Below are positions 1 to 1,198 of a stretch of DNA of 1,460 nucleotides, piece after piece (positions within the stretch are counted from its first letter, which is position 1; each line of letters begins with the position of its first letter). The notes under the pieces are model-generated. The model saw nothing but the letters and a program-made list of their open reading frames with translations. It searched no databases and had not been told where the DNA came from. The stretch lies in assembly GCF_003334335.1 (NCBI RefSeq), contig NZ_QOWQ01000106.1; one strand, written 5' to 3'. The position numbers were made by a program, and so were the translations under genes. The DNA comes from Escherichia coli. Lineage in GTDB: Bacteria; Pseudomonadota; Gammaproteobacteria; Enterobacterales; Enterobacteriaceae.

Positions 1-173
1 GCCTGCCGGGGCAGCAGTATGATGAGGAGTCCGGCCTGTATTACAACCGCCACCGCTATTATGACCCGCTGCAGGGGAGGTATATCACTCAGGATCCGAT
101 TGGGCTGAAGGGGGGATGGAATTTTTATCAGTATCCGCTGAATCCGGTTCAGTATATAGATTCAATGGGACTG
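1..173 (+). other. Rhs core C-terminal hyperconserved region, including the DPIGL motif (codons at 93-107) and the terminal PxxxxDxxGL-type motif [10 protein letters not shown] (144-173) that marks the core/CT boundary
   Basis: Direct translation. GC-rich (about 60% by hand count over 1-120) compared with the rest of the window. Confidence 0.85.
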
Positions 174-632
174 GCATCAAAATATGGACACTTAAATAAT
201 GGCGGATATGGAGCGAGACCCAACAAACCGCCTACGCCCGATCCAAGTAAATTGCCGGACATAGCGAAACAATTAAGACTGCCATATCCTATTGACCAGG
301 CCAGTAGTGCGCCTAATGTTTTCAAAACATTCTTCAGAGCATTAAGCCCTTACGACTACACACTGTATTGCAGGAAGTGGGTAAAACCAAATCTGACTTG
401 TACGCCACAGGATGATTCCCAGTATCCAGGGATGGATACAAAGACAGCAAGTGATTACCTGCCACAGACAAATTGGCCAACAACTCAATTACCACCAGGA
501 TATACTTGTGCAGAACCCTATTTATTCCCAGACATTAATAAACCCGATGGGCCAGCAACAGCAGGGATAGATGATTTGGGTGAAATTTTAGCTAAGATGA
601 AACAGAGAACATCGAGAGGAATAAGAAAATGA
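1..632 (+). CDS. Rhs-family (YD-repeat) polymorphic toxin, 3' end only (5'-partial; reading frame begins at position 3; stop TGA 630-632). Encodes the end of the conserved Rhs core plus a variable C-terminal toxin domain of unknown activity. May correspond to an orphan rhs fragment such as E. coli K-12 ybfO, but this cannot be confirmed from the window.
   Basis: Frame 3 is open from position 3 to 632 with no stop. Translation begins [57 protein letters not shown], which is the hyperconserved Rhs core terminus (YYDPxxGRYxxxDPIGLxGGxNxYxY...PxxxxDxxGL). The six-frame track starts this ORF at ATG 165 only because that is the first Met; the conserved Rhs sequence upstream shows the gene continues beyond the 5' edge of the window. 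Confidence 0.92.
174..629 (+). other. Variable Rhs C-terminal (CT) toxin domain, about 152 aa, activity unknown
   Basis: Sequence after the DSMGL boundary: [152 protein letters not shown]. It is rich in Pro, Tyr and Thr, has 3 Cys, and shows no nuclease (HNH, His-Me), deaminase or ART motif that I can recognise by eye. Lower GC than the core. Confidence 0.7.
614..620 (+). promoter_or_regulatory. Shine-Dalgarno sequence (GAGAGGA) for the downstream immunity-like CDS
   Basis: GAGAGGA at 614-620, 8 nt upstream of ATG 629; lies inside the 3' end of the Rhs CDS. Confidence 0.55.
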
Positions 633-685
633 AAAGAGTTTTGTTCTTTTTGCTGATGATATTTGTTAGTTTTGGTGTTATAGCT
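629..685 (+). other. Predicted signal peptide (19 aa) of the immunity-like protein; probable SPase I cleavage after VIA
   Basis: [19 protein letters not shown] followed by DCE. No canonical lipobox, because the residue before Cys is Asp, so a lipoprotein is unlikely. Confidence 0.6.
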
Positions 686-1198
686 GATTGCGAAATACAA
701 GCTAAAGATCATGATTGTTTTACTATTTTCGCTAAGGGTACTATTTTTTCCGCGTTTCCTGTCTTAAATAATAAAGCCATGTGGAGATGGTATCAGAATG
801 AGGACATCGGTGAGTATTATTGGCAAACAGAACTGGGTACATGTAAAAATAATAAATTCACACCAAGCGGGGCGAGACTCTTAATTCGCGTCGGGTCACT
901 ACGCCTTAATGAAAATCATGCCATCAAAGGAACGTTGCAGGAGTTGATAAATACAGCAGAAAAAACGGCGTTTCTCGGCGATCGGTTTAGAAGTTATATA
1001 AGAGCGGGTATCTATCAAAAAAAGAGCAGTGATCCAGTTCAGTTGTTGGCAGTCCTTGATAATTCAATCATGGTAAAATATTTTAAAGATGAGAAACCAA
1101 CTTATGCTCGAATGACAGCACATCTCCCGAACAAAAATGAGTCTTACGAATGTTTAATAAAGATACAGCATGAACTAATTCGTAGTGAAGAGAAATAA
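629..1198 (+). CDS. ybfC: Putative Rhs immunity protein (RhsI-like), 189 aa, with N-terminal Sec signal peptide; predicted periplasmic. Resembles E. coli K-12 YbfC in length and context (tentative).
   Basis: Complete ORF ATG 629 to TAA 1196-1198 with an SD 8 nt upstream. The start overlaps the Rhs stop (ATGA at 629-632), the usual arrangement of toxin/immunity pairs. N-terminus [21 protein letters not shown] has a positive n-region, a hydrophobic h-region and a V-I-A signal peptidase I site. Position immediately 3' of an Rhs CT domain. The gene symbol rests on recalled length (189 aa) and neighbourhood (rhs fragment upstream, H-rpt transposase downstream), not on a verified alignment. Confidence 0.8.

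Follow-up and report, generated by a model that had tools for sequence, protein, structure and literature searches.

An AT-rich putative toxin/immunity cassette behind a GC-rich Rhs core end at the RhsC element of Escherichia coli K-12

The window analysed here, a 1,460-nucleotide stretch of Escherichia coli DNA, is 100% identical to K-12 and very probably represents the downstream end of the K-12 RhsC element, made up of an orphan Rhs tip, ybfC and an H-repeat/ISAs1 remnant. The annotated gene order at this locus of K-12 is rhsC - ybfB - partial RHS - ybfC - ybfQ, and all features described below lie on the forward strand. Positions 1-176 hold the 3' end of the Rhs core and belong to an orphan rhs fragment (the ybfO/rhsO pseudogene, annotated in K-12 J53 as a partial RHS core-domain pseudogene) that spans 8112-9632 of the K-12 locus sequence L001 and is partial, lacking the N-terminus. 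The core end encodes 57 residues in frame 3, and residues 1-57 match the NCBIfam models RHS_core NF041261 (E 7.7e-32) and TIGR03696 Rhs_assc_core (E 2.5e-20). Change-point analysis delimits a GC-rich portion (1-115, 60.0% GC); the last 60 bp or so of the core (116-176), defined by the change-point position and by alignment, are AT-rich (39.3% GC) yet conserved. The core closes with a ten-residue junction motif (147-176), a one-residue variant of PxxxxDPxGL that reads DSMGL, with P, D, G and L retained and S in place of the second P. This motif varies among homologues of the CT family (DPMGL, DPKGL, DSLGL, DALGL), and we therefore regard DSMGL as natural variation.

Behind the motif lies the C-terminal tip (CT, 177-632, 151 amino acids plus the stop codon), a putative toxin domain recognised by translation, composition and homologues. 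Its stop codon overlaps the start codon of ybfC in the sequence ATGA (629-632). We are confident that ybfC (629-1198, 189 amino acids) is translationally coupled to the CT, and the list of open reading frames, annotation and co-inheritance with the CT mark it as a putative cognate immunity gene. The first 21 residues of its product (629-691) resemble a signal peptide in sequence. A short tail 3' of ybfC (1199-1238) travels with the cassette and carries the right boundary of the shared module, as judged from homology limits: homology with O157 and ST2747 stops at approximately 1237-1241, and the downstream contexts there differ. Outside the cassette, repeats and annotation identify 1281-1460 as the left end of an H-repeat/ISAs1-family element, within which ybfQ, annotated as a partial ISAs1 transposase, starts at 1424. 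This segment is found in three copies in the K-12 locus (L001 10281-10460, 10661-10840 and 11952-12107) and is also present after other rhs loci.

Base composition falls along the window much as the initial annotation had described it from a hand count (about 60% GC over 1-120, 40-50% in the CT and about 30% over 629-700): the computed values are 59.2%, 43.3% (174-628, with 100-bp windows of 36-51%) and 29.2%, together with 52.6% for 1-173 and 36.7% for the whole of ybfC. Mononucleotide shuffling of the window (10,000 replicates) never reached the GC content of 1-120 and matched the contrast between the core and the rest in 0.03% of replicates. For the orphan open reading frame together with ybfC, taken from the wider K-12 locus, the log-likelihood ratio of a one-split test was 51.9, against a maximum of 7.6 in 200 shuffles. 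A break at the core/CT junction, as proposed from the hand count, is thus real but misplaced. The best change point falls at window position ~115 (support interval 36-123), still within the conserved core end; the last codon of the junction motif follows 57-97 bp further downstream in the six core ends tested. Because the change point is equally far upstream of the homology break, composition alone does not set the cassette boundary. Fitted on the window alone, the change point moves to ~566, a position that is uninformative without the upstream core because GC falls in several steps.

The cassette, which extends from approximately 147/177 to 1238 of the window, was found in three contexts. 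In K-12 it is orphaned behind rhsC-CT/ybfB; in S42 and O157:H7 it is joined to a full-length rhs gene at the same locus, between ybfA and ybgA; and in ST2747 and NMBU_W05E18 it is joined to a full-length rhs gene at the nikR-yhhJ locus, with 96% identity. The full-length Rhs protein of S42 comprises DUF6531, RHS repeats and an RHS core domain. In O157:H7 the sixth codon of ybfC carries a 1-bp insertion, and the full-length toxin gene is intact. The ybfA-ybgA locus itself exists in four states, since Nord122 and TUM1886 carry a different tip there and strain C4 has no rhs. Flanks are therefore not identical in all relatives, and the three cassette contexts support the earlier view of a foreign CT/immunity module set on a conserved core and exchangeable by recombination in that core. 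The cassette is present in 3,615 of the 5,426 complete E. coli genomes (67%), the K-12 tip with ybfB in 2,779 and an rhs gene adjoining ybfA in 3,693. The CT and ybfC are co-inherited as a pair in K-12, S42, O157 and ST2747, that is, at two E. coli loci, and also in Phytobacter ursingii, and every CT homologue recovered (29-76% identity) follows an Rhs core end.

The core end is a multi-copy sequence, occurring in a median of eight places per E. coli genome and sharing 93.6-97.5% identity with the core ends of the main rhsC gene and other rhs copies. Rhs copies with unrelated CTs match the window only to 160-170, and in their alignment conservation extends to about 146-160 and collapses after 176, so that the limit of core homology first estimated at 173 was about right. 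A search for an upstream full-length rhs gene sharing this core found rhsC, 1.87 kb upstream of the orphan fragment, with a common repeat of 1,045 bp at 97.2% identity that ends at window position 170 and contains an identical run of at most 224 bp. Segment 1-173, which had been proposed as the recombination handle, does belong to one, but the handle measures 1,044-1,045 bp and window positions 1-170 are merely its tail. The K-12 and S42 loci differ in length by exactly 1,871 bp, which is one repeat unit, flanked by core direct repeats of 1,044 bp. The many private differences of S42 led us to set aside its derivation from K-12 by simple deletion; its alleles are roughly chimeric, main-type as far as about position 327 of the fragment and orphan-type from 552 onwards, and polymorphisms among copies of the core repeat are mosaic and shuffled. 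Searches for the cassette on mobile elements gave 0 matches in phages and none on a true plasmid, four of the five 'plasmid' matches being records of 0.28-4.8 Mb. CP088628.1 (10.2 kb) was considered as an excised circle and rejected: it holds the whole rhs gene with the cassette, in the order of the ST2747 chromosome and with unrelated segments in between, and since it has no replication gene we took it for a chromosomal contig labelled wrongly. No circular intermediate was thus seen among the plasmid and phage matches, and the absence of cassette copies from true plasmids and phages leaves a mobile donor pool hypothetical.

Taken as a whole, the evidence makes us highly confident that the GC drop is the seam between a GC-rich, multi-copy Rhs core and an AT-rich toxin/immunity cassette of different history. 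The orphan consists of a partial core without an N-terminus, a core-end domain with its motif and a co-inherited small open reading frame; it shows the GC contrast, and it occurs fused in other strains. We propose that such AT-rich, rare-codon-rich cassettes come from a pool common to the Enterobacteriaceae and would bring along a stretch of core, here 1,044-1,045 bp. Homologous recombination in this stretch could attach a cassette to a full-length rhs gene, whose toxin would then be encapsulated and deliverable; alternatively, the same recombination may shunt the prior tip downstream as a silent orphan. Under this scheme rhsC-CT/ybfB would occupy the expressed position in K-12, leaving the ybfO-CT/ybfC cassette as the orphan, and the latter cassette would be the expressed one in S42 and O157:H7. 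The composition, the limits of homology and the alternative arrangements are observed directly, and they would be compatible with either direction of exchange, an insertion displacing the earlier tip or a deletion joining it up again.

The drop in GC might instead reflect the proteins encoded, a CT rich in Pro, Thr and Ser followed by a hydrophobic signal peptide, and not where the DNA came from. This is correct for the step between the CT (43%) and 629-700 (29%): third-position GC is equal on either side (0.344 in the CT and 0.339 in ybfC, p = 1.0) and it is the second position that differs (0.49 in the CT, 0.34 in ybfC, 0.21 in the signal peptide). At synonymous sites the CT and ybfC are a single compositional unit, not two steps. 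Measured against the composition of the window itself, the GC of 629-700 stands out only slightly (p = 0.05) and is due to signal-peptide codons, with their second-position GC of 0.21 and 44% T; the further drop at the start of ybfC, once read as a foreign signature, therefore keeps its value but not its meaning. At the core/CT break, however, the contrast persists at third codon positions, where GC falls from 0.732 (orphan core) to 0.344 (CT; Fisher p = 6.5e-16), and it is therefore not an amino-acid artefact. Codon usage across the locus behaves likewise, rare codons making up 3-4% in the core and flanks (3.4% in the core), 16.6% in the CT and 10.1% in ybfC. Computed profile and third-position GC alike confirm the contrast, leaving no uniform GC across the locus, and protein composition, holding for the step into the signal peptide and refuted for the core/CT break, is a highly improbable explanation of the whole. 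It is less improbable, though still rather doubtful, that the core is the compositional alien, GC-rich and foreign, and the whole Rhs element an accessory island. Third-position GC in flanking chromosomal genes is 0.594, with 151-codon windows of 0.49-0.70, all of which the core exceeds (0.73, p = 3.8e-7), and about 1,730 of the 5,426 genomes have ybfA without a neighbouring rhs. Yet the tip is equally deviant in the opposite direction (0.34 against 0.594, p = 2.6e-9, under the flank minimum of 0.49), and rare-codon use in the core is at host level. Both partners, core and tip, therefore depart from the host background; the description of a foreign module on a conserved core is borne out for the tip, but the core (0.73 against 0.59) is itself atypical. 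An alien core complements the seam between partners of different history and does not replace it.

Low GC could also be a mark of decay, a silent orphan pseudogene drifting towards AT under mutation bias. The K-12 fragment is indeed an annotated pseudogene without its N-terminus, and in several strains IS1 or IS5 has inserted into it. We nevertheless consider this the least probable of the alternatives, close to negligible, given that the cassette is 98-99.9% identical where it is fused to intact full-length rhs genes, that the CT and ybfC reading frames are both intact, that 45 alignment columns of YbfC are invariant from genus to genus, and that the expressed tip rhsC-CT/ybfB is just as low in GC. 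The same sawtooth of core and tip recurs at rhsC-CT/ybfB in K-12 and in P. ursingii, where the homologues (76% protein identity for the CT and 60% for YbfC) are equally AT-rich within a locus of 55% GC. Somewhat better placed, but still improbable, is the notion that the orphan cassette is a self-contained module resembling a type II toxin-antitoxin system and expressed from a promoter inside the core end. For Salmonella rhs a P2 promoter has been reported 89 nt ahead of the sequence that codes for the motif, and stated to occur in E. coli too (PMC7043789), and an in-frame ATG within the motif (DSMGL) opens a reading frame at 165-632. At the equivalent positions, however, the window has ATGATG-17 nt-TACAAC where Salmonella has TTGACG-17-TACAAT, so that the -10 element lacks its last T. 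The conserved P2 promoter (-35 TTGACG, -10 TACAAT) is thus absent from the window; the site was not picked up by a promoter scan, and scanning the window for promoters and terminators gave no excess over shuffle expectation (5 promoter-like sites against 4.4 expected). An export signal on YbfC, moreover, fits a cytoplasmic antitoxin poorly.

The K-12 Rhs elements were reportedly described by the Hill laboratory in the 1990s as composites of a core of about 62% GC, an AT-rich core extension, a downstream open reading frame and H-repeats, each component being said to have its own evolutionary history. Nothing in our data differs substantively from these descriptions; what we add are population-scale counts and the exact position of the change point. 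Compositional breaks and cassette swapping in Rhs loci are likewise already published: Jackson et al. 2009 (PMC2935791) set out how core and tip contrast in GC, as well as the displacement model. As in that study, we find a GC-rich core next to a low-GC tip, tips common to several loci, and a downstream fragment composed of partial core, hyperconserved end and variable tip, the core part resembling the upstream full-length gene. Clade I loci of E. coli were stated there to be generally without downstream dissociated tips, whereas one is present at the K-12 RhsC locus, in an arrangement common to about 2,500 genomes. In Salmonella Typhimurium LT2 (Koskiniemi et al. 2014, PMC3967940; PMC7043789) a full-length rhs gene is similarly followed by an orphan CT/immunity pair with a common core repeat, and recombination in the repeat, seen experimentally, fuses main gene and orphan tip. 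At 1,045 bp and 97.2% identity, the repeat described here is longer and more similar than that of Salmonella (522 bp, 95%), a further difference being that the fused state already occurs among E. coli strains in nature. The internal P2 promoter of Salmonella rhs, reportedly present in E. coli too (Starsta et al. 2020, PMC7043789), is degenerate in the window, and the LT2 locus is linked to a type VI secretion system whereas no such linkage was seen at the K-12 locus. In other bacteria orphan rhs-CT/rhsI modules also occur fused to full-length genes (Poole et al. 2011, PMC3150448). The cdiA-CT/cdiI and rhs-CT/rhsI orphans of that work share with ours a motif-demarcated variable CT, a small immunity gene directly downstream and some retained upstream coding sequence, but the present CT family is found behind Rhs cores only, and its motif is DSMGL, not DPxGL.

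The locus is a classic case of how toxins evolve as modules: a conserved shell for delivery would swap warhead and antidote by way of a shared handle. To this picture our analysis makes modest additions, namely the presence of the cassette in two thirds of complete E. coli genomes and in at least three contexts, the single repeat unit separating K-12 from S42 and a GC change point located inside the core end and not at the junction. For the putative warhead and antidote encoded here, in the best-studied bacterium, a literature search on ybfO, ybfC and rhsC found no functional study, and no experimental data on ybfO or ybfC. Neither the CT nor YbfC matched known toxin or immunity families in Pfam, NCBIfam, PADLOC or the PDB, the search for the CT extending to folds, and the CT family was found in no toxin scaffold other than Rhs. 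A toxin role for the ybfO-type CT and an immunity role for YbfC are accordingly what their arrangement leads us to infer. The family has a conserved core, SPYDYxxYCxKW...LxC...DYxP...GYxCxEPYxFP...DD, with three conserved cysteines. In YbfC, Cys21 is invariant and forms part of lipobox-like sequences (LASC, IAAC or MASC) in distant homologues, and the putative export signal suggests a periplasmic site of action. Tentatively, and as a possibility we rate below even, the CT may represent an undescribed toxin fold acting in the periplasm or envelope of the target cell, and YbfC an exported beta-sandwich protein, lipoprotein-like in the Kluyvera, Citrobacter and Salmonella salamae homologues and in E. 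coli apparently a substrate of signal peptidase I. If so, an envelope-targeting CT with an exported YbfC would constitute a new activity in the Rhs repertoire, unstudied in E. coli K-12. Delivery in K-12 itself is doubtful because no vgrG adjoins the K-12 locus and because K-12 is not known to have a type VI secretion system. The S42 and O157 loci have no vgrG nearby either. In two metagenomic contigs (L010 and L011), a homologous CT lies downstream of vgrG-like and DUF6531/RHS genes.

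The stretch is identical over all 1,460 bp to K-12 and many other E. coli genomes. In K-12 J53 (locus L001), where ybfA and ybgA flank the RhsC element, it sits at that element's downstream end; the genes are annotated in the order full-length rhsC (4,194 bp), ybfB, a partial "RHS repeat-associated core domain" pseudogene without an N-terminus (the orphan), ybfC and three remnants of the ISAs1 family (H-repeat). The end of the partial rhs ORF occupies 1-632 by translation, and its residues 1-57 match the NCBIfam RHS core models to the models' last position; ybfC is listed as the ORF at 629-1198 and ybfQ starts at 1424. 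We refer to the Rhs C-terminal tip, a putative toxin, together with ybfC, the putative immunity gene, as the cassette (177-1198). Left ends of the H-repeat (1281-1460; three copies in the K-12 locus) recur in tandem-like fashion downstream of ybfC in J53 (L001 10661-10840 and 11952-12107, at 95.6% and 90.4% identity) and are also found downstream of the rhs loci of O157:H7 PNUSAE145590 (L002) and ST2747 (L003) and of a further locus (L005). In several strains IS1, IS903B or ISKpn26 is inserted inside the window and splits the match in two, which indicates ongoing erosion of the orphan cassette.

The compositional break is confirmed. Recomputed by segment, GC content is 59.2% over 1-120 (a value matched by none of 10,000 shuffles), 43.3% over 174-628, 29.2% over 629-700 and 36.7% over the whole of ybfC, and the hand-counted values of the initial annotation were accurate. 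The full K-12 locus displays the same sawtooth twice, from rhsC core (59-67%) to its own tip (42-47%) and ybfB (31%), and again from orphan core (59-66%) to orphan tip (43-49%) and ybfC (33-42%), between adjoining chromosomal genes of 50-58% GC. For the orphan ORF and ybfC together, a one-split likelihood test gave an LLR of 51.9, with no shuffle above 7.6. Such a break is a real, well-documented and already known feature of the Rhs elements of the best-known bacterial genome; reportedly, the Hill laboratory described K-12 Rhs elements in the early 1990s as a GC-rich core, an AT-rich extension, a downstream ORF and an H-repeat. The interpretation of a foreign, swappable cassette is supported with four corrections, which concern the position of the break, the unity of the cassette, the length of the homologous handle and the atypical composition of the core itself.

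The break had been placed at the core/tip junction, and its position does not coincide with the end of homology. The orphan and the main gene, rhsC, share 1,045 bp of homologous DNA (97.2% identity), up to window position 170; the recombination handle proposed at 1-173 had about the right end and fell far short of the true length. Matches to rhs copies with unrelated tips in other strains are confined to 1-160, and a multiple alignment of rhs copies shows near identity to about 146, partial conservation over the motif-coding 147-176 and no similarity thereafter. In six core ends, which bear four different tips, the compositional change point is instead located 57-97 bp upstream of the motif's final codon, and its support interval stops short of the junction in all six (positions include 80-123 in the window, L001 7185-7251, L005 15259-15346 and L003 13749-13797). 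AT-rich sequence is thus already present in the final ~60 bp of conserved core: window 116-176 is conserved across rhs copies, yet has only 39.3% GC. This segment may historically have been part of the tips, or may be constrained by the N-, F-, Y- and I-rich peptide it encodes. The junction motif itself (147-176; canonically PxxxxDPxGL) reads DSMGL here instead of DPxGL, a variant that accompanies the tip in K-12, S42, O157 and ST2747; homologues carry DPMGL, DPKGL, DSLGL or DALGL. The Met codon of DSMGL starts an in-frame ORF (165-632) whose predicted product is almost exactly the free tip. On the right, the cassette ends at about 1238, some 40 bp past the ybfC stop, beyond which K-12 and S42 differ from O157 and ST2747.

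The proposal of a swappable module on a conserved core is upheld by the occurrence of the same cassette in different contexts. It is present, as a single copy, in 3,615 of 5,426 complete E. coli genomes; 2,779 carry the K-12 tip and ybfB, and 3,693 an rhs gene adjoining ybfA. Between ybfA and ybgA, the cassette is orphaned behind the rhsC tip and ybfB in K-12, fused to a 4,200-bp full-length rhs in S42 (99.93% identity to the window, with the same H-repeat junction downstream), and fused to a full-length rhs followed by other genes in O157:H7; Nord122 and TUM1886 have an unrelated tip and small ORF at this site. Between nikR and yhhJ, ST2747 and NMBU_W05E18 carry a 96% identical cassette fused to a full-length rhs, with a second orphan fragment further downstream. 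The difference in length between K-12 and S42 is exactly 1,871 bp and corresponds to one unit (core repeat, K-12 tip, ybfB and spacer) bounded by 1,044-bp direct repeats, as expected if one homologous exchange had taken place in the core. Among copies of the core repeat, polymorphic sites are shuffled, and the copy in S42 roughly follows the main type upstream of the repeat's longest identical run (224 bp) and the orphan type downstream of it; many private differences leave the direction of the change not callable.

Several of these sites also hold strings of small genes. The ybfA-ybgA site of C4 lacks rhs and has only three small genes (L007 6945-8085), one of which carries the annotation contact-dependent growth inhibition immunity protein; the site may therefore hold a leftover orphan immunity array. 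Downstream of the cassette in O157 (L002 10294-11350) and ST2747 (L003 10266-12403), there are further small genes that have no toxin next to them; annotated as NTF2-fold immunity, DUF6258 and pentapeptide-repeat proteins, they look like arrays of the same kind. A 10,245-bp circular record labelled plasmid (CP088628.1) contains a whole rhs gene, the cassette and downstream immunity genes, and is collinear with the ST2747 chromosome (97.8-99.4% identity) except for two non-matching segments of ~1.3-1.5 kb that interrupt or flank the match. It contains no replication gene and is probably a mis-assigned chromosomal contig, with an excised element as a residual possibility.

These data fit the published displacement model, in which a tip with a piece of core would be recombined into the rhs gene already in place, whose own tip would be left downstream as a dissociated fragment. 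Jackson et al. delimited dissociated tips by the GC peak of the core fragment (PMC2935791), Poole et al. defined orphan rhs-CT/rhsI modules that are fused to full-length genes elsewhere (PMC3150448), and Koskiniemi et al. observed main/orphan recombination in evolving Salmonella cultures across a 522-bp repeat of 95% identity (PMC3967940), compared with which the E. coli repeat is twice as long and more similar.

Codon positions provide a means of telling DNA composition from protein composition, which could by itself lower GC. Third-position GC is 0.732 in the orphan core, 0.344 in the tip and 0.339 in ybfC, against 0.594 in flanking genes (0.49-0.70 in 151-codon windows). Core and tip differ sharply (Fisher p = 6.5e-16), tip and ybfC do not (p = 1.0), and the latter two therefore form one compositional unit. 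Protein composition accounts only for the step from tip to signal peptide: the second drop noted by the initial annotation, to ~30% at 629-700, is due to the N-terminus of YbfC, which is hydrophobic and signal-peptide-like (second-position GC 0.21, T 44%). Codons rare in E. coli (AGA, AGG, ATA, CTA, CGA, GGA, CCC and TTA) account for 3-4% in core and flanks, 10.1% in ybfC and 16.6% in the tip. The cassette falls below the flanking-gene range in third-position GC (p = 2.6e-9) and the core above it (p = 3.8e-7); the core is thus compositionally atypical as well, and the view that the core is the alien element is partly true and complements the main explanation.

The near-identical cassettes found on intact genes contradict AT drift of a dead gene, as do an expressed tip that is equally AT-rich and conservation of the cassette across genera. 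Nor is a stand-alone toxin-antitoxin role with internal expression, as described in PMC7043789, supported: the Salmonella P2 promoter is degenerate in the window (ATGATG/TACAAC), promoter signals there are not above chance, and a putative exported immunity protein fits such a role poorly.

Beyond E. coli, homologues of the tip occur in Salmonella and Phytobacter (66-76% identity) and of YbfC in Salmonella, Escherichia albertii, Pseudocitrobacter, Kluyvera and Citrobacter (58-92%). The Phytobacter ursingii pair (tip 76%, YbfC 60% protein identity) is orphaned as well, following an rhs that carries a different tip, and displays the same sawtooth in a locus of 55% GC. On two metagenomic contigs a homologue lies downstream of vgrG-like and DUF6531/RHS genes. 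An exhaustive profile-free search recovered distant tip relatives at 29-46% identity, and an Rhs core end precedes every one whose sequence reaches upstream of the tip. The family shares a conserved core of ~95 residues with nine invariant positions, including two cysteines; a third cysteine is kept in more than 90% of sequences.

The one point of some remaining interest is the uncharacterised pair of putative toxin and immunity proteins encoded here. The 151-residue tip and YbfC have no match in NCBIfam, Pfam, PADLOC or PDB, and no relative with a known function was detected for the tip. AlphaFold2 models the tip only weakly (pLDDT 61), and this weak model matched no solved structure. YbfC is modelled as a beta-sandwich (pLDDT 74) with only generic Ig-like structural matches. 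It has four invariant cysteines, and its N-terminus is basic, followed by a 16-residue hydrophobic stretch and the invariant Cys21. In distant homologues the lipobox is canonical (LASC, IAAC, MASC), whereas the residue at -1 to Cys21 is Asp or Asn in E. coli and Salmonella (VIADC, VIANC), and the E. coli VIA|DC fits a predicted signal peptidase I site. The sequences thus suggest that a single immunity family has switched between being a lipoprotein and being a soluble periplasmic protein. If YbfC is an exported immunity protein, the analogy with type VI secretion effectors that act in the periplasm would point to the envelope as the putative toxin's site of action. In O157:H7 PNUSAE145590, ybfC (L002 9453-10023) has a 1-bp insertion in a T-run at codon 6 and bears a frameshift annotation; the cognate tip there belongs to an intact full-length rhs. 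The remaining ORF is intact and could restart at Met10, in which case the signal peptide would lack its basic N-region. H64, another O157-like genome, has the same match length of 1,023 bp.
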